DNA of 64,000 nucleotides from Planctomycetota bacterium (GTDB lineage Bacteria > Planctomycetota > J058), in the NCBI GenBank assembly GCA_019636275.1, contig JAHBXY010000023.1:1509-65508 (forward strand), given 5' to 3'. Under the pieces are notes generated by a model, which was given only the letters and a program-made list of their open reading frames with translations, was not told where the DNA came from and made no database searches. How positions within the stretch are numbered: position 1 is the stretch's first letter; every line of letters starts with the position of its first letter. Of this stretch, positions 1,081 to 22,147 are shown in pieces. Made by a program: the position numbers and the translations under genes.

Positions 1081-1158
1081 CGAGTCCTCTCCTGTGCCGC
1101 CGAGCGAGGCCCGCCATGGGCCCGCGCCGCGGCCGTCCAGCATTGCCTTCGAGTTCTT

Positions 1159-1177
1159 GAGACTGCGACTCATTCTC
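1159..1177. promoter_or_regulatory. Fur-box-like operator, degenerate copy (GAGACT GCGACT C ATTCTC)
   Basis: Has the same 6-6-1-6 hexamer layout as the classical Fur box GATAAT GATAAT C ATTATC and is similar to the copies at 1219, 16334 and 20568. Confidence 0.6.
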
Positions 1178-1218
1178 AGGAGGCGAGACGTCACTTCGAA
1201 CGCCCGTCCGCCCACGTC

Positions 1219-1239
1219 GAGATTGAGACTCAGTCTCAA
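1219..1239. promoter_or_regulatory. Fur-box-like operator GAGATTGAGACTCAGTCTCAA
   Basis: Perfect 8-1-8 palindrome TTGAGACT-C-AGTCTCAA. The 19-mer 1219-1237 is identical to 16334-16352 and 20568-20586. Confidence 0.8.
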
Positions 1240-1250
1240 CACGGAGGCGA

Positions 1251-1279
1251 ACTCTATCCGGCTCTGATCGCGGGGTCAA
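1251..1279 (-). promoter_or_regulatory. sigma70-type promoter TTGACC-N17-TAGAGT for the stand-alone pilin
   Basis: On the minus strand, TTGACC is at 1279-1274, followed by a 17-nt spacer and TAGAGT at 1256-1251. Operator copies flank it. Confidence 0.7.
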
Positions 1280-1287
1280 GCCTTTTT

Positions 1288-1306
1288 GCGAATGAGTCGC
1301 AATCTC
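1288..1306. promoter_or_regulatory. Fur-box-like operator, degenerate copy upstream of -35 (minus strand GAGATT GCGACT C ATTCGC)
   Basis: The reverse complement of 1288-1306 matches the 6-6-1-6 motif. Confidence 0.55.
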
Positions 1307-1407
1307 AGTTGAACCCGCGTCGTAGCGCGGCGGCCACGCCGGCTCGCCGCATTCGACGCTCCTGGGCGAACCTCGAGCGCCGCCGGGCGAGCCGACGCGA
1401 TCGCCTC

Positions 1408-2754
1408 TCAGCCGCCGGGGCTCCGCAGCCGGCGGGGCAGGCCCTCGAAGCGCTCGACGGCGTGGTACGCGCCGGCGGCGCGGGCGACCTGCAGGGCCTG
1501 CTCGGCCCGCCGCGCGACCTCGTCGGCGCCGGCGCGCCCAGCCGCGAGCTCGAGGAGGGCGACGGTCACGTCGCGCCGGCAGGCCAGGTCGGCCCCTGCT
1601 TCGCCGGGGAGCGACAGGCCGCGGACCGGCGCCAGGGCCGCCTCGGCGTCGTCGAGGCGCCGCGCGCGCAGGAGGACGCCCGCGCGGTTGACCGCCTGGC
1701 GCAGGCGGCCCGCGGGGTCGCCGGCCTCGAGGAACAGCCGCTCCGCGGCGGCGAACTCCTCGGCGGCGGCGTCGACCCGGCCCAGGTCGACGAGGAGCTC
1801 CGCCACGAGCGCCCGCGCGCTGGCCTCGGTCACGAGGTCGCGCGCGGCCCTGGCGTCCTCGACGGCTCGCTGCCCCTCCGCCAGGGCGGGCTCGGCCTGC
1901 GCGGCGAGGTGGTGCGCCCGGGCCAGCAGCAGGCGGTCGCCCGCCGGCGGGACGGGGGCGCTCCGCTGGAGCGTGGCCGCGTGGCGCAGCGCCACGAGGG
2001 GGAGCCGGCGCTCGAGCGCGGCCCGGCTCAACGCGCGGAGCCAGGCCGGCGGCGCGGCCGCCGAGGCCTCCCGCTCCTGCCGGAGCGCCTCCAGCCGCTC
2101 GAGGGCCGTGGCGTGCCACGTGACCCCGTCGTCGCGGCGCGTCGCGGCGCCCCACTCGGCGACGACGGCCTCCGGGTCGGCCGCCGACGAGAAGAAGAGC
2201 GCCTGCGTCCGCTGCACCGCGGTCCCGACGAAGGCGCCGGGGAGCGGGGCGCCGAGCGCCGCCTCGACCAGGCGCACCTCCGCCGACCACACCGGATCGC
2301 GGACCTCGGCGAACCCGCGCCCGGCCCGGCGCAGGCGGCCGCGGCCCGGCCGGTCGGCCGCGCGCAGGGCCAGGGCGCGACCGACCGCCGCGCGCCCACG
2401 CGCGTGCGCGGCCGGGGCCGACCGCCGCGCCCGGAGGCTGTCCAGGTAGGCCACCTGCGGCGGGCGCTGCCGGGCGAAGGCATCCGCGAGCGCCTCGAGC
2501 GTCGCGTCGGCGTCGGCCTGGAGGAACAGCGCGTGCGCGTGCTCGGGCTCGTCGCGGACCAGGGCCGCCTGGCAGGCGGGGGCGCCCGACTGCGCCTCGA
2601 ACCTGGCCCCGAACGCCGCCACGAGCCCCGCGTCGGGCGCCAGCCACGGGTCGACCGTGACCGCCGGCGCGGCCGGGGCCTCCGGCGCCGCCGGCGGCGC
2701 GCTCGCGCAGCCCGCGAGGGCCACGGCCAGGAGCAGCAGACGTCGGCGCATCAT
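1408..2754 (-). CDS. TPR-like helical lipoprotein (candidate secretin pilotin/accessory protein)
   Basis: MMRRRLLLLAVALAG|C lipobox and Ala/Leu-rich TPR-like helices at the C-terminus. ATGA overlap with the secretin stop codon. Confidence 0.7.
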   Translation of the reverse strand: MMRRRLLLLAVALAGCASAPPAAPEAPAAPAVTVDPWLAPDAGLVAAFGARFEAQSGAPACQAALVRDEPEHAHALFLQADADATLEALADAFARQRPPQVAYLDSLRARRSAPAAHARGRAAVGRALALRAADRPGRGRLRRAGRGFAEVRDPVWSAEVRLVEAALGAPLPGAFVGTAVQRTQALFFSSAADPEAVVAEWGAATRRDDGVTWHATALERLEALRQEREASAAAPPAWLRALSRAALERRLPLVALRHAATLQRSAPVPPAGDRLLLARAHHLAAQAEPALAEGQRAVEDARAARDLVTEASARALVAELLVDLGRVDAAAEEFAAAERLFLEAGDPAGRLRQAVNRAGVLLRARRLDDAEAALAPVRGLSLPGEAGADLACRRDVTVALLELAAGRAGADEVARRAEQALQVARAAGAYHAVERFEGLPRRLRSPGG

Positions 2755-4691
2755 CGGATCGGCTCCGGCGCGGGGCGCAGGTAGTCGTCGAACAGCAGCC
2801 GGTAGCCCTCGGCGCCCGGCACGTCGCCGCGCCGGTAGCGCTGCAGGGCCGCGTCGCCCAGGTCGTGGTAGGGGTGCAGCGACAGCGTCTCCATCGTCCG
2901 GCGCGAGCGCTGCGCCGCCTCGGCCGGCGTCGTGAGCACGTGCGGCGTGATGAGCAGCACGAGCTCCGTCTGCACCTCGGCGCGCTGGGTCGAGCCGAAC
3001 AGCCAGCCGATCACCGGCAGGTTCATGAGGAACGGGATCCCGCTGCGCTGGTCGCGCAGCTCCTTGCGGATCAGGCCGCCCACCGCCAGCGTCAGCCCGT
3101 CCTTGGCGACCACGGTGCCCTGCAGGCTGGCCGTGCTCACCGTGTCGATGTTCACGAGCTGCACGCCGCCCGTGACGCCGCCGGCGGGGACCGGCAGCTG
3201 CGCGCCGCCGGCGTTCACCGTGGACACGTCCTGCACGATCGTCAGCGCCACCGTGCGGTCGGCGTTGATCCGGGGGACGATCCGGAGCGTGTTGCCCACG
3301 TCGCGCAGGTCGACCGTCGGCACGACCTGGCTGGCGACGACGCCGTTGGTGGTGGTCGTCTGCAGCTCGAAGCTGCGCACCAGCGGCCGCTCCTCGCCGA
3401 TGAAGATGCGCGAGACCTCCTGGTTGGCGCACAGGAGCAGCGGCGTGGCCAGCACGGACACGCGCCCCTCGCGCTGCAGCGCCTGGATGCGCACGCGCAC
3501 GTGCTCGTTGAGGTACTGGTAGACGAGCGTGCCCCCGGCCAGCGGGAAGTTGCCCAGCCCGGCCAGGTTCTCGAGGCCCATGGCCTGGCTCAGGTCGAGC
3601 GGGTTCACCGGCTTGCCGGTGGGGAGGTTGCCGCGCGGCGGGTCCGCGACCCAGTCCACGTCGAGCGCCGTCTCGCGCCCGTCGTCGAGGCGCACCTCGA
3701 GGATCTTCATCTCGAGGAGCACCTGCGCCAGCGGCCGGTCGAGGTCCTGCACGAGCGCCTCGACCTCGCGCATGGCCGCCTCGTCGGCCGTGCGCACGAC
3801 GAGCACGTTCTGCCGCCGGTTCACGGCCACCCAGATCGGCGGCCGCTCCTCGGTCAGGCGGTCCAGGTCCTCGCCCGACGCCCGGCCGCCGTCGACCCGC
3901 ACGCGCGAGAGCTGGTCGGCGGTGACGCGGTCGGCGAGGCGCTCGGCGGCCTGCTCCGCGGCGGCGGAGGCGCGGCCGCCCTGGCCGAAGCCGCCCTGGC
4001 CGAACCCGCCCCCGAACCCGCCCCCGAAGTTGTTGTTGATCCCGCCGCCCACGTTCGTCGTGAAGGGCCCGCCGGCGCCGCCGCCGCCCAGCCCGCCGCC
4101 GAAGCCGCCGAAGCCGCCGCCGAAGCCGCCCTGTCCGAAGCCGCCCTGGCCGAAGCCGCCCTGGCCGAAGCCGCCCTGGCCGAAGCCGCCCCCGAACCCG
4201 CCGGCGAAGGCGTCGGCCGAGAGCGAGTCGAAGATCCCGTACGACAGGGCCACGCGGTCGCCGAAGACGTCGCGGAGCGTCTGGGCGATCGACAGGGCGT
4301 TGGGCTGCAGGAGGGTGAAGACCTTGACCGCCGGCTCGCGCCGCACGATCAGGTCCTCGCGCAGCTCCTCGGCCGTCATGATGCGCAGGACGCGGTCCTC
4401 CTCGCGGTACCACAGGCCCGAGGCCTTGCACATGGCCTCGACGGCCGTGCGCACGGGCACGCCCTGGAGGAGCAGGGTCACCGGCCGCCCGCCGGCCTCG
4501 GGCGTGGCGATGATGTTCCACCCGGTCGTCTCGGCGAGGAGCCGCGCCGCGTCGGCGACGGTGGCCTCGCGCAGATCGAGCCGCTCGACGAGCGGGCCGG
4601 CTGCTGGGGCGGCCTCCTGGGCGCGCGCGAGGAGCGCGCCGCCGAGGAGGACGAAGGAGAGGGCCGTGAGGCGCAGCGCGGGGGGCCTCAC
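2751..4691 (-). CDS. Secretin (GspD/PilQ family) with Gly/Phe-rich insertion
   Basis: Signal peptide, N-domains (LDLREATV..; RQNVLVVRT..EVEALVQDLDRP), QVLLEMKILEV, and the C-terminal secretin motif GGLIR..SGIPFLMNLPVIGWLFGS..ELVLLITPHV. GTGA overlap with the upstream gene. Confidence 0.9.
   Translation of the reverse strand: MRPPALRLTALSFVLLGGALLARAQEAAPAAGPLVERLDLREATVADAARLLAETTGWNIIATPEAGGRPVTLLLQGVPVRTAVEAMCKASGLWYREEDRVLRIMTAEELREDLIVRREPAVKVFTLLQPNALSIAQTLRDVFGDRVALSYGIFDSLSADAFAGGFGGGFGQGGFGQGGFGQGGFGQGGFGGGFGGFGGGLGGGGAGGPFTTNVGGGINNNFGGGFGGGFGQGGFGQGGRASAAAEQAAERLADRVTADQLSRVRVDGGRASGEDLDRLTEERPPIWVAVNRRQNVLVVRTADEAAMREVEALVQDLDRPLAQVLLEMKILEVRLDDGRETALDVDWVADPPRGNLPTGKPVNPLDLSQAMGLENLAGLGNFPLAGGTLVYQYLNEHVRVRIQALQREGRVSVLATPLLLCANQEVSRIFIGEERPLVRSFELQTTTTNGVVASQVVPTVDLRDVGNTLRIVPRINADRTVALTIVQDVSTVNAGGAQLPVPAGGVTGGVQLVNIDTVSTASLQGTVVAKDGLTLAVGGLIRKELRDQRSGIPFLMNLPVIGWLFGSTQRAEVQTELVLLITPHVLTTPAEAAQRSRRTMETLSLHPYHDLGDAALQRYRRGDVPGAEGYRLLFDDYLRPAPEPIR
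3975..4208 (-). repeat. GGFGQ/GGFG low-complexity tandem repeat inside the secretin
   Basis: 15-bp units GCCGCCCTGGCCGAA are repeated, encoding 12 FG dipeptides in about 78 aa. Confidence 0.9.
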
Positions 4692-5068
4692 CTGACCGTC
4701 ACCGTGGCGCCCTCGAGGGCGCCGATGCGCAGGACCACGCCGCGGTCGCCGATGGTCACCACGTCCAGGGGGACCTCGACGCCGTCCTTGACGATCGAGA
4801 TGCGGTCGCCCGGCCGGACGACGTGGACGGGCCCGGCGCCCACGGCCAGGAGGGCGGCCGGCGGGCGGCCCTCGAGGCGCAGCGTCCCGCGCACGGCCAG
4901 CGGGGGCAGGGCGCCGAACAGCGACTGCGACCACACCGCGGCCGGGTCGCCGCCGAGGGCCTGCGGGGCGGCGAACGGGTCGTCGGGCGGGGGCCAGTCC
5001 TGGGCGCGCGCGAGCGAGAGCGCGAGCGCGGCGACGAGCGGGGCGAGGACGAGCAGGCGGGGGGTCAT
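4688..5068 (-). CDS. Small secreted protein, PilP/GspC-HR-like
   Basis: Signal peptide, DPF motif, then LAVRGTL..ALL..HVVRPGDRI. It lies directly upstream of the secretin, as pilP does. Confidence 0.55.
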   Translation of the reverse strand: MTPRLLVLAPLVAALALSLARAQDWPPPDDPFAAPQALGGDPAAVWSQSLFGALPPLAVRGTLRLEGRPPAALLAVGAGPVHVVRPGDRISIVKDGVEVPLDVVTIGDRGVVLRIGALEGATVTVR

Positions 5069-5081
5069 GCGGCTCCCGGGG

Positions 5082-6284
5082 TCAACGACGGGCGACCAGG
5101 CTGAAGAGGGCCTGGAAGAAGCTGATGTAGACGAAGCCGACCATGCCGCCGACGACGACGATGATGACCGGCTCGATGAAGGTGGCGAGGGTGCGCACGT
5201 GCGTCTGCAGGCGGCGGTCGTGGAACTCGCCCAGGCGCAGGAGCACGTCGTCGAGGGCGCCCGTCTCCTCGCCCACGCGCACGACCTGCGTGGTCATGGG
5301 CGAGACCACCGGGTGCTCGAGGCTGGGGGCCAGCGCCAACCCCTGGACCACCCGCTCGCGCGCGCGCAGGACCACGCCGGCGTAGGCGCGGTTGGTGAAC
5401 GAGTCGGCGAGGAGGCGCAGCGACTCGACCAGCGGCAGGCCGCTGCGCAGGAGGAGCCCGAGCGTGCGCCCCAGGTGCGCCTGGGCGGCGGCGCGCAGGA
5501 GGCCGCCGACGACGGGGACCGAGAGGGCCGCCCGGTCGGTGAGGCGGCGGCCCGCGTCGATGCGGCGCACGACGACGAACAGCGCCAGCGCGGCGAGCGC
5601 GCCCAGCAGCAGGGCCGCCCCCCACTGCTGCATGAAGGCGGAGACGTCCATGAGGAGCTGCGTGCTCCAGGGGAGCGCCGCGCCGCGTCCGGCGAGGAAG
5701 CTGACGAACTTGGGGAGCACCTTCACGGTCAGGAACCAGAAGGTGGCGCAGGAGACGAGCACGACCAGCGACGGGTAGGCGAGGCTCGTGAGGAGCTGCG
5801 CCTGGATCGCCGCGCGGCGCTCGACGAACTCCGCCGAGCGCTCGAGGGCGTCGGGCAGCTCGCCCGTGGCCTCGGCCGTGCGCACGAGGTGCACGGCGAT
5901 CTCGGGGAACAGCGCCCGCTCCGCCTGGAGCCCGTCCGAGAGCGGCCGGCCGCTGCTGACGGTGCGCGTGAGGCGCCGGGCGGCGCGGCGCAGGCCCACG
6001 CGGTTGGCCGCCGCCTCGAGGGTCTCCAGCGCCTGGAGCAGCGTCAGCCCCGTGCGCAGCATGAGCGCGAGCTGGGTGAGGAACAGGACCACGTCGGCGC
6101 TGCGCACGTATTCCAGGCGCCAGGCCCGGTCGGCGTCGGGCTCGGCGGCCTGGCCGGCGGCGAGCTCGAGCGGGAACAGCCCGCGCGCGCGGAGGGCGGC
6201 GGCGGCGCCGGCGGCGTCCGGAGCGTCCACCCCGCCCCGGACCTCCGCCCCGCGCTCGTCGAGGGCCACGTAGTCGATCCGCAC
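5082..6284 (-). CDS. Type II secretion F / PilC inner-membrane platform protein
   Basis: FLTQLALMLRTGLTLLQAL, AEATGELPDALER, SLAYP, VGEETGALDDVL and IEPVIIVVVG are the two T2SSF domains. Confidence 0.93.
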   Translation of the reverse strand: MRIDYVALDERGAEVRGGVDAPDAAGAAAALRARGLFPLELAAGQAAEPDADRAWRLEYVRSADVVLFLTQLALMLRTGLTLLQALETLEAAANRVGLRRAARRLTRTVSSGRPLSDGLQAERALFPEIAVHLVRTAEATGELPDALERSAEFVERRAAIQAQLLTSLAYPSLVVLVSCATFWFLTVKVLPKFVSFLAGRGAALPWSTQLLMDVSAFMQQWGAALLLGALAALALFVVVRRIDAGRRLTDRAALSVPVVGGLLRAAAQAHLGRTLGLLLRSGLPLVESLRLLADSFTNRAYAGVVLRARERVVQGLALAPSLEHPVVSPMTTQVVRVGEETGALDDVLLRLGEFHDRRLQTHVRTLATFIEPVIIVVVGGMVGFVYISFFQALFSLVARR

Positions 6285-6305
6285 GGCGCTCTCCCCCGCC
6301 CCCCG

Positions 6306-7916
6306 CTACGCCCGCGCCTCGAGCGCCTCGGCCAGGCTGGTGCTCCCGTCGAGCACCTTGCGCAGGGCGTCCTCGGCCAGCGTCGGGGCGCCGCCCGCGC
6401 GCGCCAGCCGGGCGACCTCGTCGGCGCCGGCGCCGCGGGCCACGAGCGCCGCGACCGCCTCGTCGACCCACAGCGCCTCGACCACGGCCAGCCGGCCGCG
6501 GTAGCCCGTGCCCAGGCAGGCCGGGCAGCCCGCCGGCTCGAACACGGGTCTCTCGTTATCGCGGCCGCCTTCGCTGCCGACGAGGCGCGCCAGCGCCGCG
6601 GCGCCCGCCGTGGTCGGGGCGCGGCAGGCGCACAGCCGGCGCACGAGGCGCTGCGCGATCGCCGCGCGCAGGGTGGCGCTGACGAGGAACGGCTCGCAGC
6701 CCAGGTCGACGAGCCGCGCGGGGGCGCCGGCCGCGCGGTTGGCGTGGAGCGAGGCCAGGACCAGGTGCCCGGTCATGGCCGCCTTCACGGCGACGTCGGC
6801 GGTCTCCTCGTCGCGGACCTCGCCGACCATGAGGACGTCGGGGTCGTGGCGCAGGAGCGAGCGCAGGGCGCGCGCGAACGTGACCTTGCCGGCGCGGTCC
6901 ACGCCGATCTGCGTGATCCCGGGGATGAGGAACTCGACCGGGTCCTCGACGGTCATGATGTTCAGCTCGGGCGCGCGCACCTCGCGCAGGGCCGCGTAGA
7001 GGGTCGTGGTCTTGCCCGAGCCGGTGGGGCCCGTGAGCAGGACCATCCCGTGCGGCTCGTCGAGCGCGAGGCGGAAGCGCCGCAGGTCGTCGGGCGAGAA
7101 GCCGAGGACCTCGAGCGTCAGCTCGCGCGTCTCGACGCCGAGGAGGCGCAGCGTGGCCCGCTCGCCGTGGCGGGTGGGGATCGTGGCCAGCCGCACGTCG
7201 AAGGCCTGCTCCTCGTGGCGGTGCTGGAAGCCGCCGTCCTGCGGCTCGCGGCGCTCGGCGATGTCGAGCCCGCCGAGGACCTTCACGCGCGAGAGGAGCT
7301 GCTGCGCCTCCTCCTGGCCCAGCGCGCCGCCGAAGGGCATGAGCCGCCCGTCGACGCGCAGGCGCACGTGCAGCCCGTCCTCCTGCGGGTCGAGGTGCAC
7401 GTCCGAGGCGCGGTGCAGCCAGGCCTGGCGCAGGAGGTCGTCGAGGAAGCTCACCGCGTCCCAGGCCGCGACCGCCTCGCCCTCGGGCGCGCGCACGTGG
7501 CGCCGGACCGCCGCCTGCAACGCACCCGGGTCGGCGATGGCCAGGGCCAGCGGCGCGTCGAGGACGCGGCGCAGGGTCTCGAGGGTGGCCGCGTCGTCCG
7601 GGTCGGCGGTGGCCACGAGCACGGCCTCGCCCTGGCGGCGCAGCGGGAGCACCGCCTTGCGCAGGACGAGGCGGGGCGGGGCGCGGCCGACGAGCGCGGC
7701 GTCGACGACCAGGTCGGCCGCCTCGAGGAACGGCAGGCCGCGCTCGCGCGCCAGGGCCCGGTAGAACGCCTCGCGCGGGACGCGCAGGCGCTCGGTGGCC
7801 ACCTCCAGCGGGTCGCGCCGGGTGCGGCGCGCCTCCTCGAGGATCTCCGCCTCGGCGGGGCGGCGCATCATGCCGGTGCCGGCGGCCGCGCGGAGCAGGG
7901 CGGGCGGGTTGCTCAT
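6306..7916 (-). CDS. GspE/PilB extension ATPase
   Basis: ASDVHLDP, LDIAERREPQDG, Walker A GPTGSGKTTT, EDPVE, LRHDPDVLMVGEVRD, GHLVLASLHAN, and the Cys motif with GYRGR. ATGA-coupled to the upstream gene. Confidence 0.93.
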   Translation of the reverse strand: MSNPPALLRAAAGTGMMRRPAEAEILEEARRTRRDPLEVATERLRVPREAFYRALARERGLPFLEAADLVVDAALVGRAPPRLVLRKAVLPLRRQGEAVLVATADPDDAATLETLRRVLDAPLALAIADPGALQAAVRRHVRAPEGEAVAAWDAVSFLDDLLRQAWLHRASDVHLDPQEDGLHVRLRVDGRLMPFGGALGQEEAQQLLSRVKVLGGLDIAERREPQDGGFQHRHEEQAFDVRLATIPTRHGERATLRLLGVETRELTLEVLGFSPDDLRRFRLALDEPHGMVLLTGPTGSGKTTTLYAALREVRAPELNIMTVEDPVEFLIPGITQIGVDRAGKVTFARALRSLLRHDPDVLMVGEVRDEETADVAVKAAMTGHLVLASLHANRAAGAPARLVDLGCEPFLVSATLRAAIAQRLVRRLCACRAPTTAGAAALARLVGSEGGRDNERPVFEPAGCPACLGTGYRGRLAVVEALWVDEAVAALVARGAGADEVARLARAGGAPTLAEDALRKVLDGSTSLAEALEARA

Positions 7917-9028
7917 CGCGCGCTCAGCCTCGTGAAGGCCCCGCCGCGCGCGTGGCGCAGGCGCTCCGCGAAGGCGCCGGGGTCGCGCGCCGCCGCCTGC
8001 GCGGCGGCCTCCGTCACCCAGCCGCGCTGGACGGCCTCGGCCAGCGACTGCTCGAGCGTGAGCATGCCCTGGGCCGCCTGCCCCTCGACGGCGGCCTGGA
8101 TCTGGGCGGTCTTGCCCGCGCGGATGAGGTTGGCCACGGCCGGCGTGATCCACAGCACCTCGGTGGCCGGGAAGCGCCCGCCGCCCTCGGCCAGCGGCAG
8201 GAGGCGCTGCGCGACCACGCAGCGGAGCACGAGCGAGAGCTGGTAGCGGATCGAGTCGCGCTCGTCGCCGCGGAAGGCGCCGATGAGCCGCTCGGTGGCG
8301 CCGATCGCGCTGCCCGAGTGCAGCGTCGAGAGCACCAGGTGGCCCGTCTCGGCGGCCATGAGGGCCGCGCGCATGGTCGCCACGTCGCGCATCTCGCCCA
8401 CGAGGATGACGTCGGGGTCCTCGCGCAGCGCGGCGCGCAGCGCGCGCGAGAAGCGGTCGAAGTCGGCGTGGAGCTCGCGCTGGTGCACGAGCGCGCGGCG
8501 GCTCTCGTGCACGTACTCGATCGGGTCCTCGAGCGTGACGACGTGGCAGGCCTCCTCGCGGTTGATCTTGTCGATGATCGCCGCGAGGGTCGTGGTCTTG
8601 CCGGAGCCGGTCGGGCCGACGAGGAGCACCAGCCCGTCCTCGAGGTCGGCCAGGCGCGCGAGCTGCGGCGGGAGGCGCAGCTCGTCGAAGCCGCGGAGCC
8701 GGTCGTCGAGCCGGCGGACGGCCGCCGCCACCTGCCCGGAGGAGGCGAACAGGTTCACGCGGAAGCGCTGCCCGTCGCCGCCGCGGGCGCGGTCGAGGAC
8801 CAGCGCCAGGTCGACCGAGCGCTCGACCTCGAGGGCCGCGCGCTGGCGCGGCGTGAGCACCTCGCCGAACAGGGCCTCGACGCCGCCCGGCGCGGGGGGC
8901 GGAGCCTCGTCGAGGAGCGGGGCCAGCCGGCCGTGGACGCGGACCTGCGGGGGGAGGCCGCAGGTGAGGTGCAGGTCGGAGGCGCCCAGGGCCACGGCGC
9001 GCGCCAGGAGGCGCCACAGGTCGGTCAT
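7913..9028 (-). CDS. pilT: PilT-family retraction ATPase
   Basis: GASDLHL at the N-terminus, GPTGSGKTTT, TLEDPIEY, LRAALREDPDVILVGEMRD, AAETGHLVLSTLH, VANLIRAGK (AIRNLIRE-like) and GMLTLEQSL; 371 aa. Confidence 0.88.
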   Translation of the reverse strand: MTDLWRLLARAVALGASDLHLTCGLPPQVRVHGRLAPLLDEAPPPAPGGVEALFGEVLTPRQRAALEVERSVDLALVLDRARGGDGQRFRVNLFASSGQVAAAVRRLDDRLRGFDELRLPPQLARLADLEDGLVLLVGPTGSGKTTTLAAIIDKINREEACHVVTLEDPIEYVHESRRALVHQRELHADFDRFSRALRAALREDPDVILVGEMRDVATMRAALMAAETGHLVLSTLHSGSAIGATERLIGAFRGDERDSIRYQLSLVLRCVVAQRLLPLAEGGGRFPATEVLWITPAVANLIRAGKTAQIQAAVEGQAAQGMLTLEQSLAEAVQRGWVTEAAAQAAARDPGAFAERLRHARGGAFTRLSAR

Positions 9029-9609: not shown

Positions 9610-9610
9610 G

Positions 9611-12782: not shown

Positions 12783-12808
12783 GTCGGCTCCGTCGGCCGC
12801 GGTCAGGG

Positions 12809-13696: not shown

Positions 13697-13865
13697 GGGG
13701 AGCACTTCTCCTGGGTCTCGGATCCCGGACCGGTCTGTCCGGGGCCGTCCCCAAGCGAACGGGGCGCCACGGTAGCGAACCCGCCTAACGGCGGCAACAT
13801 CCGCCGCCGACGCGCGCCCCGACCACCACGCGATGCGCCAGGCCTGATGCAGAACCATCCACCCC

Positions 13866-15833
13866 TCAACGCACCGTCAGGACGTGGACCTCGAAGGCCC
13901 GCGCCCCCTCCACGTTCGCCGTGTAGAGGAGGACCCGCTCGCCCCAGGGCAGCGCCGTCATGTGCCGGGTCGAGACGGGGAGCGTGCACAGCGTCGACCA
14001 GGCGCCGGTCGCCGGGTCGAACACCTCGACGGTCGCGTTCGCCTCGAACTCGCCGGGCGCGTCGGCCCGGGGCGACGTCCCGCCGAGGAGGTAGAGCTTG
14101 CCGCCCAGGGCCACCATCTCCGGCGAGATCCGCGGGCGCGCGGGCGCCGGCGCCTTGGACCACGAGCGCGTCTTCAGGTCCAGGACGTCCACGTCGGGGA
14201 CGAGCGTGAAGCCCTCGCGCATGCCGCCGACCAGGTAGTACCGGCCGTCGACGACGGCGCCGCCGAAGGCGCGGCGCGGCGTGGGGACCGTGAGGCCGGC
14301 CGGGGCGAAGGTCTCGCCGGCCTTCAGGTCCCACTCCAGGACCTCCGCCGGGAACTGGAACTGCTGCTCGCGCGGGCGCGAGCCGTCGAAGTCGACCCCG
14401 CCCACGACCAGCAGCTTGCCCTCGTGCTGCACGAGGCCGAACTGCGTGCGCGCGACGGGCAGGGCGGCCTTCGTGGGGATCCACTCCCGCTTGCCCAGGT
14501 GGAGCTGGAACACCGTCGGCCAGGCCCTCGCGCCCTGCCCTTCGTTGTTGAAGCCGCCCACGAACAGCGCCCGGTCGTCCTGACCGAGGGACCCGCCGCC
14601 GGCGACGAGCGTCGAGGACATCGTCTGCCGGCGCTCGGGGAGGGCGGGCAGGCGCTCGACGCGCAGCGAGCCCAGGTGGATCCGCCAGGACTCCGCGAGG
14701 AAGTTCTCCGGCTTGAAGTCGTGCTGACCGAGGCTGTTGTTGCCGCCGACCACGTGCAGGGCGTTGCGGTGCAGCGCCACGCCCTGGCGGTTCTTGGCCA
14801 GGCCCGGCGAGGGGACGACGAACGACACGAGCGACGGGCCCTGCGGGCGCAGGTCGACGGCCTCGCACACGCGCAGGTGCCCGCCGTCGGACGAGCCGCC
14901 GACCGCCAGCAGCGCCTCCGGGCCCGTGGCCACGAGGCGGTGGAAGTAGCGCGGGAAGGCCAGCGTGGCCACCTCCTCCCACTCGGGGGCGTCGCCCTGG
15001 AGGCCGAGGCGGTGCACGGCGCTGCGGACCCCGGAGGCGAGCAGGTCGTCGCCGATCACGGCCGCGGCCACGCCGAAGCCGTTGAACGGCAGGTCGGGGC
15101 CGTCCGACCACGCCCCGGTCGCCGGGTCGAACACCGACACGGCGCGCGTCCCGGTCTCGCTGTCCGAGGGCATGCCGCCCAGGGCCCAGAGCTTGCCGTC
15201 GACGACGGCCAGGGCCAGCGCCCGGCGCTCGAACGGCGTCCCGGGGAAGGGCTCCCAGGCGAGCGGCTGCTGCGTCAGGTCGAGCGACCAGGCCGTGCGG
15301 TGCCAGGTGACGAGGTCGCCCTGCAGGCTCCAGCCGCCGACGACGACCAGCCGCTCGCCGAGCACCGCCACGTCGTGCGACGAGCGCGGCTCGGGCAGCG
15401 GCGGCAGCGCCTCCCAGGTGCGGGCCAGCGGGTCGTAGCGCGAGGCGCTGGCCACCGACCACAGGTCGTCGGGCTGGTCGGCGCGGTTGCGGGCCGAGAG
15501 GCCGCCGATGCGGTAGACCTTGCCGCCGTGCGCCACGACGGCGGGGCTCTGCAGGGGCTGCTGCATGGGCAGCGCCTCCCAGGAGCGGCCGTCGAGCAGG
15601 TTCAGCCGGTAGAAGCCCTTCGACAGCGTGTCGGCCGAGTGGTGGTGCACGGCGCCGGCGTGGCCGCCGTAGACGTAGATCCAGTCGCCGTCACGCGCCG
15701 CGCCGAAGCTGGCCAGCGGCTCGGGCAGGAGCGGCCACTCGACGCGCCGGAGCGCGTCGGCGGCCGCCGTGGGCGCGAGGCCCGCGAGGGCAGCGGCCAG
15801 GGCGAGGCCGAGCTGGAAGCGTGAGGCGTTCAT
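13866..15833 (-). CDS. Secreted double kelch beta-propeller protein
   Basis: Signal peptide (..AAALAGLAPTAAA) and about 12 kelch-like repeats (IYVYGG, VYRIGG, LVVVGG, LWALGG, LHVVGG, YYLVGG, LYLLGG; YDP..TW). Confidence 0.88.
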   Translation of the reverse strand: MNASRFQLGLALAAALAGLAPTAAADALRRVEWPLLPEPLASFGAARDGDWIYVYGGHAGAVHHHSADTLSKGFYRLNLLDGRSWEALPMQQPLQSPAVVAHGGKVYRIGGLSARNRADQPDDLWSVASASRYDPLARTWEALPPLPEPRSSHDVAVLGERLVVVGGWSLQGDLVTWHRTAWSLDLTQQPLAWEPFPGTPFERRALALAVVDGKLWALGGMPSDSETGTRAVSVFDPATGAWSDGPDLPFNGFGVAAAVIGDDLLASGVRSAVHRLGLQGDAPEWEEVATLAFPRYFHRLVATGPEALLAVGGSSDGGHLRVCEAVDLRPQGPSLVSFVVPSPGLAKNRQGVALHRNALHVVGGNNSLGQHDFKPENFLAESWRIHLGSLRVERLPALPERRQTMSSTLVAGGGSLGQDDRALFVGGFNNEGQGARAWPTVFQLHLGKREWIPTKAALPVARTQFGLVQHEGKLLVVGGVDFDGSRPREQQFQFPAEVLEWDLKAGETFAPAGLTVPTPRRAFGGAVVDGRYYLVGGMREGFTLVPDVDVLDLKTRSWSKAPAPARPRISPEMVALGGKLYLLGGTSPRADAPGEFEANATVEVFDPATGAWSTLCTLPVSTRHMTALPWGERVLLYTANVEGARAFEVHVLTVR

Positions 15834-16312
15834 GCCGTGAGCTCCTCATGGGCGGCGGGCGGGGTCTGGATCCGCCCGGCGAGGGAGCGGACGCCGTCGA
15901 AGGCCAGGGCGCCGCGCAGGTAGATGCGCAGGCCGTCGGCGGCGGGGTCGGGGCTGGTGAGGACGGCCCAGAGGCGGGCGGCCAGGTGGGGCACGGTCCA
16001 CAGGTCGCGGCCGACGAGGTCGCCGCCGAACGCCTCGAGCCCGTAGGCCTGCAGCGCGTCGATCGCGCCGCGGTGCATCAGGTCGAGCAGCCGCTCGAGC
16101 TGGAGCGCCAGCGGGGTCTCGGCGTGGCAGGCGCGGTGCACCGCCGCGACCAGGGCGCGCTCGTCGGGGCAGCGGCAGGCGGGCAGCTCGACCCCGGCCG
16201 CGCGGGCCAGGTTCGACAGCTCGCGCCCGTCGAAGGTGAGCAGGAGCACCGCGTCGAGGAGCGTGCACTCCACCTGCCAGATCCGTAGCCGGGTCGCCTC
16301 GCGCTCGGTCAT
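15830..16312 (-). CDS. Hypothetical cytoplasmic protein, first gene of the pilus operon (resembles N-terminal region of long DUF2325 proteins)
   Basis: GGAGG RBS and ATGA overlap with the kelch gene. The RIW..C, L.R.LD..H and LWA..T.P pattern recalls DUF2325-associated N-termini (from memory, unverified). Confidence 0.6.
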   Translation of the reverse strand: MTEREATRLRIWQVECTLLDAVLLLTFDGRELSNLARAAGVELPACRCPDERALVAAVHRACHAETPLALQLERLLDLMHRGAIDALQAYGLEAFGGDLVGRDLWTVPHLAARLWAVLTSPDPAADGLRIYLRGALAFDGVRSLAGRIQTPPAAHEELTA

Positions 16313-16333
16313 CACGTCCTCCGGGTCACGCAT

Positions 16334-16352
16334 GAGATTGAGACTCAGTCTC
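16334..16352. promoter_or_regulatory. Fur-box-like operator GAGATTGAGACTCAGTCTC
   Basis: Identical to 1219-1237 and 20568-20586, and lies about 20 bp upstream of the first start codon. Confidence 0.8.
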
Positions 16353-16413
16353 AGCGAGCGTCCGAAGAAAACGGTGAGGAACCCGCCCTCACCGGCTCGA
16401 ATCGGACCCGCTG

Positions 16414-16434
16414 AGTTGAGAATCATTCTCAACT
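16414..16434. promoter_or_regulatory. Fur-box-like perfect palindrome AGTTGAGAAT-C-ATTCTCAACT
   Basis: 10-1-10 inverted repeat whose core TGAGAAT-n-ATTCTCA is the 7-1-7 Fur-type site. A TTGACA -35 lies at 16472-16467 on the minus strand. Confidence 0.82.
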
Positions 16435-16524
16435 ACGCCGAGGTTGTGCCATGCGTGGGGGTGCCCTGTCAAGACCCCCGCCGCGGCCGCCGGTGCAGGG
16501 TGTGAGTTCACCGGGGTGGCAGCG

Positions 16525-17016
16525 ATGACCGACGCACGACGACGGGCGGCCCTGATCGGCGGGCTCGCCCTCCTGCTGCTCCTCTACCTTCACGCGACGG
16601 ATCCTGCGCCTCCGGTCGCCCGGCTGGGAAACGACGGGGGCGCCTGGCCGATCGGCGCGCTGAAGACGATCAGCACCTCGCAGACGGTCTTCCGCGAGTG
16701 GGACCACGACCGCAACGGCGTCCTCGACTACGGGACGCTGCGCCAGCTCTCGGACGCCAACCTCATCGACCCCCTCCTGGGCAGCGGCGAGAAGGACGGC
16801 TACCGCTTCGAGACCCGGCCGTCGCCCACGACGCCCGAGTTCCTCTGGTTCGCCGTGGCCAACCCGATCCGGCCGGGCACGACCGGCGACCGCTACTTCT
16901 GCACGAACCACTCGGGCGTCATCTACTACACCGGCGTCCAGGGCCGGGCGATCGCCCTCGACGACGGCGGGCCGGAGTGCGCGGTCCCGACGACCATGCT
17001 CCCGGTCGGGAAGTAG
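16525..17016 (+). CDS. Small membrane-anchored pilin-like/DUF2950-like protein
   Basis: N-terminal TM helix followed by IGALKTISTSQTVFRE.D.D.NGVLDYG.L..L..LID..LGSG.KDGYRF..A.P..PG.TGDRYF. It has no G|F cleavage site. Confidence 0.6.
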   Translation: MTDARRRAALIGGLALLLLLYLHATDPAPPVARLGNDGGAWPIGALKTISTSQTVFREWDHDRNGVLDYGTLRQLSDANLIDPLLGSGEKDGYRFETRPSPTTPEFLWFAVANPIRPGTTGDRYFCTNHSGVIYYTGVQGRAIALDDGGPECAVPTTMLPVGK

Positions 17017-17020
17017 CGCG

Positions 17021-18028
17021 TCAGCCGGGCAGCGCCCAGCACGGCCCGACGACGACCACCCGCCCGGCGTCGCCCGCGCGCGCGCCGAGCGGCGCCTCGG
17101 CCAGCACCTCGCGCTCGCCCGCCCGGACGCGCACCCGCGCGCCACGGCCGACGAAGGCCCGGGCCACCACGCGCGCGTCGCCCGCGCCCGCCTCGAAGCG
17201 CGCCTGCTCGGGGCGCACGAGGAGCGTCACGGGCCCGGTCCGCGCCGCGACGAGCGCCACCTCGCCGAAGGGCGTGCTCGCCGACTCGCCCCGCGCCTCG
17301 GCCGGCACGAAGGCGCACGGGCCGAGGCGCGCCGCGATCGCCGCGTCGACCGGCCGGGCGTAGACGACCTCGGGCGCGTCGCACTGCACGATCCGCCCGG
17401 GTGGCCCCTCGAGCACGGCCACGCGGTCGGCGAGGGTCATGGCGTCCTGCGCGTCGTGCGTGACCAGGAGCGCGCTGGCGCCCTGCCCGGCGAGGAGCGC
17501 GCGCACCTCCTGGCCCAGGTCGAGGCGGCGCGGCGCGTCGACGTTGGCGAACGGCTCGTCGAGGAGCAGCACGTGCGGCTGCGCCGCCAGCGCGCGGGCG
17601 AGCGCCACGCGCTGTTGCTGGCCTCCGGAGAGCTGCGCCGGCCGGCGCGCCGCCAGGTCCGCCAGGCCGGTCGCCGCGAGGAGCGCGTCGACGCGCGCCG
17701 GGTCGGGGCAGCCGAAGGCGACGTTGTCGCGCACGGTCATCGCCGGGAAGAGCGCGTACTCCTGGAACACGAGGCCCACCCCGCGCCGCTCGGCCGGCAC
17801 GCGCTCGCGCCCGCCCTCGGCGACGACCGCGCCGCCGACGACCACGCGACCCCGGGCCGGCGTCGTCAGCCCGGCCAGGCAGCGCAGGAGCGTCGTCTTG
17901 CCCGAGCCCGAGGCGCCGACGAGCGCCACGAGCTCGCCCTGCGCGAGCGTCAGGTCGACGCCCTCGAGCACCGGCGCGCCGGGCGCGTAGGCGTGCCCCA
18001 GCCCCTCGACGACCAGCGGCAGCGTCAC
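17021..18028 (-). CDS. fbpC: Fe3+ ABC transporter ATP-binding subunit (FbpC/FutC-like)
   Basis: GASGSGKT, VPAERRGVGLVFQEYALFP, LSGGQQQRVALARALA, LLLDEPF and VTHD, with a TOBE-like tail. Confidence 0.88.
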   Translation of the reverse strand: MTLPLVVEGLGHAYAPGAPVLEGVDLTLAQGELVALVGASGSGKTTLLRCLAGLTTPARGRVVVGGAVVAEGGRERVPAERRGVGLVFQEYALFPAMTVRDNVAFGCPDPARVDALLAATGLADLAARRPAQLSGGQQQRVALARALAAQPHVLLLDEPFANVDAPRRLDLGQEVRALLAGQGASALLVTHDAQDAMTLADRVAVLEGPPGRIVQCDAPEVVYARPVDAAIAARLGPCAFVPAEARGESASTPFGEVALVAARTGPVTLLVRPEQARFEAGAGDARVVARAFVGRGARVRVRAGEREVLAEAPLGARAGDAGRVVVVGPCWALPG

Positions 18029-19545
18029 CGCTCACCTCCCCAGCGCGCCGAGAGCGCGAACGCCGCCAGGCACACGCCGACGAGCACGAGGCCGGCGGCG
18101 CCCGCGTCGTGCAGGAGCGCCTCCTCGAGCCGGTCGTAGACGCGAAACGACAGCGTCCGCGCCCCGGCCGCCGGGCCGAGGAGCAGCGTGATCGGCAGCT
18201 CCTTGGCCACCTGCGCCACGACGAGGCCCGCGGCGGCCGCGACCCCCGGCGCGACGGCCGGCAGCACGACGCGCACGAGCCGCCGCGCGCGCCCCGCGCC
18301 GAGGACGCGCGCCGACTCGTCCTGCCGCGGGTCGAACGCGGCCGCCGCCGTGCGCAGGGCGGCGTGCGCCTCGGGCAGGAAGCGGGCCACGTAGCCGGCG
18401 AGGAGGAGCGCCCCGGCCTCGCCCAGCGCGCGGTAGGCGCCGCCGCCGGTCAGGGCCAGGGCCAGGCGCAGGACGCCGAACGCCACGAGCACGCCGGGCA
18501 GGGCGTGGCCGAGGAGCACCGCCAGGTCGACGCCACGCCGCCCGTGCCGCCCGGCCGCCCAGCCGGGCGCCCAGGCCAGGAGCACCGTGACGAGGGCCGC
18601 GACGGCGCCGACGCGCAGGGTGATCGCCACCGGCTCGCCGAGCGGGGCGAACGGCAGCCCGCGCGACCAGCCGTCGACGACCCACAGCGCCAGCGTCGCC
18701 ACCGGCAGGAGGCAGCCCAGGCCGGCCGTGAGCCCGTGGGCGACGAGCGCCGCGGCGAACCCCGCCCGGCCGAGCGGGCGGCGCTCGACCGGCCGCGGGT
18801 TGGCGACGCCGGCCTCGGCCACGCGCCCGTGGGCCAGGCGCCCGAGGACGAGCAGCAGCAACGTGGCCGCGAGCAGGAGCCCGCCCAGCACGGCGGCGTC
18901 GCCCAGGCGCTGCTGCGCGACCGCCTGGTAGATCCGCCAGGTGAGCACCGGCGCGTCGAGGACCGCCACGGCGCCGAAGTCGGAGAGCACGTAGAGCTGC
19001 ACGAGGAGCGCCGAGGCCACGAGCGCCGGCCGCAGCCGCGGCAGGACGACCGCCCGGAAGGCCGCCGCGCGCGAGGCGCCGAGCGTGCGCGCCGCCTCCT
19101 CCTCGGCCGCCGGGACGCGCGCCAGGGCGGCGCCGACGATCACCTGCGCCAGCGGCGCCGTCGCCAGCGTGAGCACGACCGCCGCCGCGCCCAGGCCGAC
19201 GAAGGCCGGCAGGCCGAGCGCGCCGCCGGGTCCGAGCGCGTGGCGCAGCGCGCCCGCGAGGAGGAAGCTGGGGAGCGCCAGCGGCAGGAGCGAGAGGACG
19301 ACGAGGACCCGCCGCCCGGGGTAGTCGGCGCGCCGGTCGAGCCAGGCGAGCGCCGCGCCGAGGGGCACCGCGAGCGCCGAGACGACGACGGCCAGGCCGA
19401 CGCTCCTGAGGACGAGCGGCCCGAGCCCCGCCGGCGGCGCGCGCCACGGGTCGCCGCCGGCGAGCCCGACCGCCAGCCCGACGACGGGCAGGAGCGGCGC
19501 CGCCGCGCCCGCGGCCACGAGGGCCCACCCGCCGGCGCGGGTCAC
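18025..19545 (-). CDS. fbpB: Fe3+ ABC transporter permease (FbpB/FutB-like)
   Basis: Two permease domains with EEEAARTLGAS and DESARVLGA loops, SDFGAV and KELPITLLL. GTGA-coupled. Confidence 0.88.
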   Translation of the reverse strand: MTRAGGWALVAAGAAAPLLPVVGLAVGLAGGDPWRAPPAGLGPLVLRSVGLAVVVSALAVPLGAALAWLDRRADYPGRRVLVVLSLLPLALPSFLLAGALRHALGPGGALGLPAFVGLGAAAVVLTLATAPLAQVIVGAALARVPAAEEEAARTLGASRAAAFRAVVLPRLRPALVASALLVQLYVLSDFGAVAVLDAPVLTWRIYQAVAQQRLGDAAVLGGLLLAATLLLLVLGRLAHGRVAEAGVANPRPVERRPLGRAGFAAALVAHGLTAGLGCLLPVATLALWVVDGWSRGLPFAPLGEPVAITLRVGAVAALVTVLLAWAPGWAAGRHGRRGVDLAVLLGHALPGVLVAFGVLRLALALTGGGAYRALGEAGALLLAGYVARFLPEAHAALRTAAAAFDPRQDESARVLGAGRARRLVRVVLPAVAPGVAAAAGLVVAQVAKELPITLLLGPAAGARTLSFRVYDRLEEALLHDAGAAGLVLVGVCLAAFALSARWGGER

Positions 19546-20540
19546 TGCAGCCCGAGCGCCCGCAGGAGCTCGAGCGTCGGCTCGAGGTCGGTCAGGTGCA
19601 CCGGGTCGACCGTGGCCAGGCCCAGGCGCTCGAGCGGCGCCACGTCGGGGTGCGTCGGCACGCCGGGGACGACGGGGTACTCGAACGTCTCGCGGGCGAA
19701 GTACTCCTGCGCCTCGTCGGAGAGGAGGAAGGCCACGAGGCGCCGCGCCTCCGCCTCGACCGGGCTGCCGGCGCGCACGGCGGCGCCCGAGAGCATGAGC
19801 AGGTTCCCGGCGTCGCCCGCCTCGGCGAAGCTCGAGTTGACGAGCGTCGAGTCCGGCCGCTTCAGGCGGTGCAGGTAGTAGTGGTTCACCCAGCCCAGCT
19901 CGACCTCGCCCCGGGCGACGGCCTCGACGATCGGGCCGTTCTTGGCGTAGGCGCGCGGCTCGTTGGCGGTCATCGCCTGGAGCCAGGCCCGCGCGCGCTC
20001 CTCGCCCCACAGGTGGCGCAAGGCGCTCACGTGCGCGTGCAGGCTGGCGTTGCCCGGCGCCCAGCCCACGCGCCCCTTCCAGCGCGGGTCCGCGAGGTCC
20101 TCGAGGCGGCGCGGCAGGTCCTCGGGCTTCACGCGCGCGGCGTCGTGCACGAGGACGCGCGCGCGCCCGCTCGTGCCCACCCAGCGGCCGCCCGGGTCGC
20201 GGAAGCGCGCGTCGGCGCGCGCGAGGACGTCGTCGGGCAGCGGCGCGAGGAGGTCGGCGATCGCGCCCAGCGCGCCGCACTCCTGCGCGATCACCACGTC
20301 GGCCGGGCTGCGGTCGCCCTCGACCCGGAGCTGCGCGGCCAGCGTCGGCGTGCCGGAGTAGCGCACGTCGAGCGCCACGCCCGTGCGCTCCTGGTAGCGG
20401 GCGAGCAGCGGCGCGAGCAGCGCCTCGCCCCGGCCGCAGTAGACGACGACCCGGCCCGAGGTCGACGGCGTCGACGGCTCGGCCGGGCAGCCGGCGAGGA
20501 GGACGGCGAGGGCGAGCAGGCTCGACGAAGGACGGATCAC
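19542..20540 (-). CDS. fbpA: Fe3+ ABC transporter substrate-binding lipoprotein (FbpA/FutA-like)
   Basis: Lipobox LLAG|C, EGDRSPADV, WVGTSGRARV, WAPGNAS, and the Fe-ligand VNHYY motif followed by TFEYP. Confidence 0.88.
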   Translation of the reverse strand: MIRPSSSLLALAVLLAGCPAEPSTPSTSGRVVVYCGRGEALLAPLLARYQERTGVALDVRYSGTPTLAAQLRVEGDRSPADVVIAQECGALGAIADLLAPLPDDVLARADARFRDPGGRWVGTSGRARVLVHDAARVKPEDLPRRLEDLADPRWKGRVGWAPGNASLHAHVSALRHLWGEERARAWLQAMTANEPRAYAKNGPIVEAVARGEVELGWVNHYYLHRLKRPDSTLVNSSFAEAGDAGNLLMLSGAAVRAGSPVEAEARRLVAFLLSDEAQEYFARETFEYPVVPGVPTHPDVAPLERLGLATVDPVHLTDLEPTLELLRALGLQ

Positions 20541-20567
20541 GGCGGTCCTCGGGGAGGAGGGAAAGGT

Positions 20568-20628
20568 GAGATTGAGACTCAGTCTCAACGAGCCCTGCCT
20601 TGGACCATGGCGGGGCTTCCGTCGTCAA
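20568..20628 (-). promoter_or_regulatory. Promoter of the iron ABC operon: -35 TTGACG (20628-20623) plus operator GAGATTGAGACTCAGTCTCAA (20568-20588)
   Basis: The operator is identical to 1219-1239, with the same 40-bp -35-to-operator offset as the other two promoters. Confidence 0.8.
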
Positions 20629-20746
20629 GCCTAACGCCCGTCCGTCGTGGAACCACGCACGTGGCTGGTTCCTCGACGCGCCGCCGACGGACGCGACGGC
20701 GCTTCGTCGGGCGCGGGGCGTGCTTGCCCCTCCGGCAGGAGGGGGC

Positions 20747-22147
<1,401 letters not shown>

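Follow-up and report, generated by a model that had tools for sequence, protein, structure and literature searches.

The closest described counterparts of the element reported here are the operators of the iron regulator Fur. The classical 19-bp E. coli box, GATAATGATAATCATTATC, and the B. subtilis and Shewanella consensuses form 6-6-1-6 arrays, or overlapping 7-1-7 dyads, of the hexamer GATAAT, located in the core promoters of iron-uptake genes (PMC1790865). For Xanthomonas campestris pv. campestris, Blanvillain et al. (2007, PMC1790865) gave the Fur-box consensus AATGAgAATcATTctCATT and compared it with those of the three bacteria just named. No description of a Fur regulon in Planctomycetota was found in the literature searched, as judged by title and abstract. 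Here, we describe a repeated palindrome in a 64,000-nucleotide stretch of DNA from a Planctomycetota bacterium (NCBI GenBank assembly GCA_019636275.1, contig JAHBXY010000023.1, positions 1,509 to 65,508 of the forward strand; hereafter the window), together with the genes that stand behind it. We consider it very probable that this palindrome is a Fur operator, composed of GAGAnT hexamers arranged as overlapping 7-1-7 dyads.

The initial annotation of the window had pointed out three identical copies of a 19-mer, two degenerate copies and one perfect palindrome, and our re-scan with 19-mer, 15-mer and 17-mer patterns at stated mismatch limits agrees with it on all counts. The 19-mer GAGATTGAGACTCAGTCTC is found exactly, on the plus strand, at 1219, 16334 and 20568, the copies at 1159 and 1288 carry three mismatches each, and the 21-bp palindrome AGTTGAGAAT-C-ATTCTCAACT can be read directly from the sequence at 16414-16434. 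Nine matches to the 19-mer were obtained on both strands with up to three mismatches, compared to 0.00 expected from 100 shuffles. Each 19-mer consists of two overlapping 15-bp 7-1-7 dyads, TGAGAnT-N-AnTCTCA, with an offset of 6 bp, an arrangement of about 19-21 bp that takes the form of a Fur box both as overlapping inverted repeats and as a hexamer array. The region 1158-1307 contains three such compound, double-dyad sites. Box A1 (1158-1178; dyads 1158-1172 and 1164-1178, with two and one mismatches to TGAGANTNANTCTCA) lies about 78 nt before the start codon of a pseudopilin-like gene (ATG at 1080), box A2 (1217-1239; dyads 1218-1232 and 1224-1238) includes the exact 19-mer at 1219-1237, and box A3 (1287-1307; dyads 1287-1301 and 1293-1307) is located upstream of the -35 hexamer of promoter A. 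Box B1 (16414-16434) is the perfect 10-1-10 palindrome, with its 15-bp core at 16417-16431, and the compound box B2 (16333-16353), containing the 19-mer at 16334-16352, immediately precedes a GGAGG ribosome-binding site, about 20 nt ahead of the ATG at 16312. The compound box C (20567-20588; 19-mer at 20568-20586) lies about 27 nt upstream of the GTG start codon of fbpA at 20540. Duplication of a longer promoter segment was considered and ruled out: outside a block of about 21 nt, the sequences around the three 19-mers cannot be aligned, indicating that these are independent sites rather than copies of a longer duplicated segment.

Alignment of 48 distinct sites gave the consensus GAGATTGAGA[C/A]T[C/G]A[G/T]TCTCAATCTC, that is, GAGAnT hexamers in a 6-6-1-6 array. 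The basic unit is a 15-bp 7-1-7 inverted repeat, TGAGA(A/C)T-N-A(T/G)TCTCA, and in the strong sites two of these dyads overlap by 9 bp to provide the hexamer array GAGAtT-GAGAcT-c-AgTCTC. It had been proposed that this is a GC-shifted, lineage-specific motif of the Fur family. This proposal does not hold, as the 15-bp core TGAGAATCATTCTCA is the published X. campestris consensus (PMC1790865), and from this identity the GC-shifted box is seen to be a known variant rather than a peculiarity of the lineage. Both boxes carry G instead of T at position 4 of the half-site, occur in high-GC genomes and stand upstream of iron-uptake genes. Unlike the Xanthomonas consensus, which is flanked by AA...TT, the sites described here are flanked by T...A (TTGAGA...TCTCAA), and half-site position 6 is C about as often as A. 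The reported Xanthomonas targets are TonB-dependent receptors, while the genome under study has a single match to the Plug domain. With the classical boxes the element shares the layout, the location in the core promoter and the iron-uptake targets; it differs in its hexamer, GAGAnT instead of GATAAT, and the canonical GATAATNATTATC has no site at up to one mismatch in the genome. One could suppose that a non-Fur regulator recognises the palindrome and that its likeness to a Fur box is convergent, given that the connection of the box to Fur follows from sequence logic only and that no fur gene adjoins any box in the genome. We regard this as very improbable, because the core is identical to a consensus derived experimentally from a Fur regulon, and because dyads overlapping with a 6-bp offset are a hallmark of Fur.

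The distribution of the Fur-like box was examined across the source genome (G000), a 9.33-Mb draft of 315 contigs with 75.6% GC, reported to be 90% complete. The 15-mer occurs at five sites without mismatch and at five with one mismatch, compared to none in either class in the reversed-genome control; the corresponding counts are 16 versus 4 at two mismatches and 192 versus 102 at three. With up to two substitutions, the 17-mer gave seven sites genome-wide, namely five in the window together with C7:25035 and C302:30870. The strong sites therefore mark only five transcription units, three in the window and two elsewhere, and outside the window they are found only before feoA-feoB and before a PepSY_TM gene, in line with the expectation that a genome scan would return feo or other iron genes and that the hits would not be random. 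A dispersed repeat can be ruled out, as there are only five loci in 9.3 Mb and all lie in promoter regions. Among the three-mismatch matches to the 15-mer, no further convincing box was identified using a crude intergenic filter, which itself dropped the feoA site. Two two-mismatch matches, C112:247 and C245:56431, were set aside as they resemble tRNA genes by eye. The three-mismatch matches also brought up an unrelated dispersed repeat of about 110 nt, containing (GGGAAC)4-5 tandem hexamers followed by CTGAGAGTCAGCCGCT, which is present on at least 16 contigs (for example C24:73502, C28:3627 and C32:22919).

Iron genes stand directly behind several of these boxes. On contig C7, a ribosome-binding site comes after the box, and then feoA-feoB (Pfam FeoA, E 2e-18; FeoB_N, E 3e-48). 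On contig C302, it precedes a gene for a membrane protein of the Pfam family PepSY_TM, which is followed by a 157-aa open reading frame (ORF) encoding a paralogue of a small Cys/His protein described below. Behind box C in the window, the minus-strand genes at 17021-20540 are identified by their Pfam and PDB matches as an FbpABC-type Fe3+ importer. The first gene encodes an FbpA-like lipoprotein (19542-20540), matched to the ferric-binding protein of PDB entry 7w3w with an E value of 4.4e-64, with the HitA, SfuA and FbpA structures ranking further down, and is followed by a permease with two BPD_transp_1 domains (18025 to about 19540) and an ABC ATPase (17021-18028).

To extend this comparison, 41 genomes were used, the source genome and 40 relatives from 29 families of the phylum. 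The 17-mer with up to one mismatch was detected in 23 of the 41, whereas the backwards control gave matches in four genomes. In 14 of the 22 loci fetched from relatives, the box adjoins genes for iron transport or storage or homologues of the boxed window genes. These include feoAB (L014, L015 and L026), an FbpA gene (L018), a gene for a P19/Iron_transport protein (L020), an FTR1 permease gene divergent from that of a Kelch protein (L024) and a gene for a Bfd-like ferredoxin (L027), as well as seven loci with pseudopilin-like, Kelch or Cys/His homologues (L008, L011, L012, L016, L017, L019 and L022). A second sample of 16 regions provided boxed feoAB (L090) and FeoA (L101) genes and an encapsulin gene (Linocin_M18; L093, G012:C638:7800-10800), where three box matches, two of them overlapping, lie between the encapsulin gene and a divergent AhpC gene. 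The same operator would here, in a sister family, control an iron-storage nanocompartment. As the box recurs before iron genes both in the source genome (feoAB, PepSY_TM and FbpABC) and in its relatives (feoAB, FbpA, P19, FTR1, Bfd and encapsulin), it is read as a Fur operator, in support of the Fur-family assignment made in the initial annotation.

The promoters of the window were described there as sharing one geometry, with the operator exactly 40 bp after a TTGACN -35 hexamer. On the minus strand, this distance was confirmed for all three, in which TTGACC at 1279, TTGACA at 16472 and TTGACG at 20628 are paired with TTGAGA at 1239, 16432 and 20588, respectively. It is a common arrangement and not a fixed rule, given that the other two promoters of the genome have spacings of 39 and 37 bp and that, in a same-genus genome (G001), the orthologous fbpA promoter has one of 21 bp, a 19-bp deletion bringing TTGACG nearer to the box. 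Promoter A (1251-1279, minus strand) consists of TTGACC, 17 nt and TAGAGT, and is the only sigma-70-like promoter called in 1001-21000 of the window (one found, 0.1 expected); box A2 starts 11 nt after its -10 hexamer. The -35 hexamer TTGACA of promoter B (16467-16472, minus strand) is conserved in G001. Its -10 hexamer is poor, and the sequence TG-G-CACAAC may act as an extended -10. Promoter C has the -35 hexamer TTGACG at 20623-20628 on the same strand. As noted previously, the promoters at 16472 and 20628 have TTGACN-N14-ATGG-NN-CAA in common, and the ATGG-NN-CAA part may likewise be an extended -10 (TG-n-hexamer); it is deleted in the fbpA promoter of G001, indicating that it is not essential. 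A sigma-54 reading of ATGGCACAA in promoter B, with TGGCAC as the -24 element, was also tried and rejected: GG-N10-GC fits here, and it fits neither the same-genus orthologue nor promoter C. A gene for a sigma-54 activator with a receiver domain is present at 20747-22147 on the plus strand, divergent from the fbpA promoter, an arrangement that is conserved in G001.

The initial annotation had also placed the operator just downstream of the predicted start site, as for a repressor. A position just after the -10 hexamer, over the predicted transcription start, recurs in many promoters. The general order is a -35 hexamer, 16-18 nt, a TAnnnT-like -10 hexamer, 8-13 nt and the box. In the source genome, this order is found at promoter A, at feoA (39 bp from -35 to box) and at the PepSY_TM gene (37 bp), and in the relatives it recurs at three feoA promoters (G001, G002 and G035), at two pseudopilin promoters (G008 and G005) and at the bfd promoter of G020. 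In all, at least nine oriented promoters carry the box within or just after the core promoter, 8-13 nt from the predicted -10, while in G038, G004 and G001 (Kelch gene) the box overlaps the -35 or -10 hexamer instead. At most promoters, a site in this position would cover the transcription start. Under iron sufficiency, Fe2+-loaded Fur would be expected to block RNA polymerase, and under iron starvation the genes would be derepressed. Following the classical Fur model, each pair of overlapping dyads would take two Fur dimers on opposite faces of the DNA, and in every arrangement of boxes the bound protein would occlude either RNA polymerase or the start site. The additional boxes, A3 upstream of the -35 hexamer and A1 and B2 60-85 bp downstream, just before the ribosome-binding sites, may, speculatively, tighten repression.

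Between boxes B1 and B2, a terminator-like hairpin followed by TTTTCTT is present on the minus strand at 16372-16394. The segment 16360-16438, computed with the palindromic box included, folds with a z score of -3.99. Conservation of the hairpin is limited to the same-genus genome, where one U-G wobble change is seen, and the other double-box leaders examined do not share it. It is possible, though unlikely, that the leader of promoter B (approximately 16437-16362) is a Fur-repressed small RNA or attenuator. A broader proposal would make the element mainly an RNA, either a 5' leader hairpin or, at promoter B, part of a small RNA of about 75 nt, Fur-independent or Fur-repressed, that ends at the hairpin 16394-16372, or else a short mobile or dispersed repeat. 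The box would indeed be transcribed at several promoters, and the fold described above ends in a hairpin and a U-tract. Against this, box A3 lies upstream of its own -35 hexamer, the box overlaps -35 or -10 elements in G038, G004 and G001 (Kelch and fbpA), the segment between the boxes is conserved within the genus only, Rfam gave no match in 1-22000, and the number of terminator-like calls does not stand out from chance (3 found, 2.2 expected). Together with the restriction to five promoter-region loci, this renders the proposal extremely improbable.

The absence of a Fur-family gene from the window, reported in the initial annotation, was verified and extends to the whole contig. Two PF01475 genes are found elsewhere in the genome, on contigs C133 (128.5 bits) and C302 (74.8 bits). 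The best score against the Fur equivalogs belongs to the C133 gene, with both paralogues below the NCBIfam cut-offs. Its product matches solved Fur proteins (6d57, E 1e-28; 4raz, the sequence of which is shared with 4rb1 and 4rb3), aligns at full length with the Campylobacter and Magnetospirillum Fur structures and has an ATVYRT recognition helix, an HHDH site and two CxxC motifs in place. The DNA-binding helix and the metal sites expected of a Fur-family protein are thus intact. By elimination, the C133 protein is most likely the regulator of the GAGA box. Genomes with close C133-type orthologues mostly carry the motif, which also argues against a non-Fur regulator, with kinship as a confounding factor.

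Alternatively, the C302 paralogue may bind the box, or the signal may not be iron but another metal or peroxide, as in a regulon of the Zur, Mur or PerR type. Metal specificity within the Fur family is not assignable from a sequence alone, neither paralogue reaches its NCBIfam cut-off, and the boxed PepSY_TM site shares its contig with the C302 paralogue and has cation-efflux, CobW and DUF1826 genes nearby. However, the box stands before iron genes (feoAB, FbpA, P19/FTR1, Bfd and encapsulin), and the C302 gene has its own distinct palindrome, a perfect 20-bp repeat of GATAAT half-sites at C302:12495-12514 (L002), about 25 bp before the ATG and unique in the genome. This is probably the operator of the C302 paralogue itself, suggesting that the latter has a separate specificity. 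We therefore consider control by the C302 protein or by another signal to be quite unlikely, and keep to the predicted iron-responsive control by the C133 protein. The C302 Fur ORF (L002:1036-1839, minus strand) continues in frame and without a stop into a Flp-type pilin-like segment with a hydrophobic stretch (...EYGLLIAG...), which may represent two genes or a fusion.

Judged from its strong sites, the predicted regulon would comprise five units: feoAB; the PepSY_TM gene with its Cys/His protein gene; fbpABC; a string of about 15 kb with Cys/His, Kelch, pseudopilin and type II secretion system (T2SS)-like genes; and a separate pseudopilin-like gene with three compound boxes. The latter (253-1080, minus strand), behind boxes A1-A3, has a Pfam N_methyl match and a partial NCBIfam match to the N-terminus of GspG, followed by a C-terminal domain of about 240 aa that is not assigned to a family. 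Its Atlas neighbours are N_methyl clusters, mostly from Planctomycetota and Verrucomicrobiota. Pfam gave only N_methyl at E <= 0.01 for the window protein 253-1119, with no match to PF07596 (DUF1559/SBP_bac_10).

The same-strand string behind promoter B and boxes B1/B2 (1408-16312, minus strand) was delineated using Pfam, NCBIfam, the coding-type GC3 pattern and the translations, and from the shared strand and small gaps we infer that it is a single operon. It starts with the gene for the Cys/His small protein (160 aa, 15830-16312), followed by that for a protein of 655 aa that carries a signal peptide and, by Pfam, two Kelch propellers (13866-15833), N-methyl pseudopilins within 12809-13858 and 11065-12171, ORFs without a family at 9025-11224, a GspE-type ATPase with an MshEN domain (Pfam T2SSE and MshEN; 6306-9017), GspF (Pfam T2SSF; 5082-6284), a secretin (Pfam Secretin; 2751-4934) and a lipoprotein-like ORF of 446 aa, not assigned a function (1408-2748). 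By Pfam, the GspD secretin, GspE, GspF and GspG-type pseudopilins of a T2SS are all present, with all NCBIfam Gsp equivalogs below their cut-offs. For GspC, GspL, GspM and the minor pseudopilins GspH-K, the ORFs at 9025-11224 gave only a weak PilN match (E 0.0095), and the cluster is therefore filed only as a T2SS/type IV filament-like system. In the source genome, PSD1-domain proteins and 37 N-methyl motif matches were also found, along with the one TonB-dependent receptor Plug domain in 9.3 Mb, a combination consistent with a planctomycete.

The Cys/His small protein has one paralogue in the genome, encoded at G000:C302:31916-32389 (L004 7916-8389), and both genes (15830-16312, minus strand, in the window) stand behind Fur boxes. 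In a collection of 5.8 billion proteins, the family has 23 members, all unnamed or 'hypothetical', of which two are labelled by NCBI as coming from Planctomycetes/Planctomycetota metagenome-assembled genomes (MAGs). One Cys is invariant and four further Cys/His positions are nearly so (C23, C55, H66, H70 and H87). No match was obtained for the family in Pfam, NCBIfam or, using the family profile, the PDB, and the Atlas model is poor (pLDDT 0.46). The protein is described as cytoplasmic, with conserved C, CxC, HxxxH and H positions.

Several of these genes keep their box in the relatives. Of nine Cys/His homologues, six have a box directly upstream, one follows a boxed Kelch gene, one lies at a contig edge and one has none. 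Kelch orthologues from the window's own family are all behind a box (5 of 5), directly or via a small-protein gene. Among four orthologues from other families, one has a box at 1345 bp, one only a two-mismatch match at 862 bp and two none within the locus examined. One of the latter two is that of G020, where a boxed N_methyl and DUF1559 gene (L099 in the second sample, family f9; PF07596, E 2.7e-51) begins 53 bp behind its box and lies, by coordinates, upstream of the Kelch orthologue. Pseudopilin-like homologues carry a box (up to one mismatch) within 700 bp upstream in 9 of 26 cases.

Comparison of the two same-genus genomes shows that their gene orders diverge precisely at the boxes. In the window (253-16333), the order is box, small protein, Kelch ... 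T2SS-like genes, 446-aa ORF, boxes and pseudopilin, while in G001 (L031 and L032) a box is followed by the small protein and the pseudopilin, and separately the T2SS-like genes and the 446-aa ORF are followed by a box and the Kelch gene, so that Kelch and pseudopilin are swapped. The compound boxes are identical within each of the two genomes and differ by one base between them. A gene for an NAD-dependent epimerase/dehydratase is found divergent beside the boxed pseudopilin-like gene in three genera (L011, L016 and L017; G003, G008 and G005).

Several observations weigh against the Fur operator or the regulon as drawn here. Eight of the 22 boxed loci from relatives lie beside unrelated or unassigned genes, mostly as one-mismatch matches in lower-GC genomes. 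For the remaining 17 of the 26 pseudopilin-like homologues, the 700 bp upstream contain no box, and a homologous locus in a Planctomycetota MAG (L030, 43% identity), the only such locus found, carries no box. Promoters B and C have poor -10 hexamers, no box stands upstream of the C133 fur gene itself, and the choice between the two Fur paralogues is a matter of deduction. The regulon list is also incomplete, as it was drawn from the draft assembly.

The operator itself is ordinary, and its value is in what it marks. What seems to be new is the regulon, in which boxes recurrently precede genes for N-methyl pseudopilins, a secreted double-Kelch protein, the Cys/His family and a T2SS/type IV filament-like cluster. 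Fur-repressed pilin or type IV pilus genes and pilin-dependent iron acquisition have been cited for the Synechocystis major pilin and for Legionella PilA2, the latter encoded by a gene that itself has no Fur box (PMC13170364). In these reported cases, as here, type IV filament components are linked to growth at low iron, and some of the pilin genes are Fur-repressed. Unlike in those cases, the link here comes from the operator sequence only, and it extends to large N-methyl pseudopilins, a whole T2SS-like cluster, a double-Kelch exoprotein and the Cys/His protein. No literature joining a pseudopilin and a Fur box in this way was found, again judging by title and abstract. N-methyl proteins with DUF1559 (PF07596) have been described as a large, planctomycete-specific family whose function is unknown; Rhodopirellula baltica has 74 such genes (PMC2754498). 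The window's pseudopilin-like protein shares with them an N-methyl motif and a large C-terminal domain, and a bona fide N_methyl and DUF1559 gene is boxed in G020; the window protein 253-1080 differs in that it does not reach PF07596, its resemblance being through its Atlas neighbours only.

Based on these associations, it could be speculated, although we hold this to be unlikely, that Fur directly switches on a dedicated type IV filament/T2SS-like machine along with the Cys/His protein of the cytoplasm, the secreted double-Kelch propeller and large N-methyl pseudopilins of the DUF1559 type, which together would provide a previously unrecognised route for iron capture across the outer membrane in a lineage almost without TonB-dependent receptors. 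In these GC-rich genomes, the box is a clean, low-noise marker that points to the pseudopilins, the Kelch exoprotein, the Cys/His protein and the T2SS-like cluster as predicted iron-starvation genes. This raises a question that can be tested in cultured planctomycetes, namely by which route iron is taken up with one Plug-domain match in the genome and what role some of the many N-methyl proteins play. Should such an iron-capture route prove true, it would offer a first grip on the function of planctomycete pseudopilin-like proteins, a large family that lacks an explanation so far.

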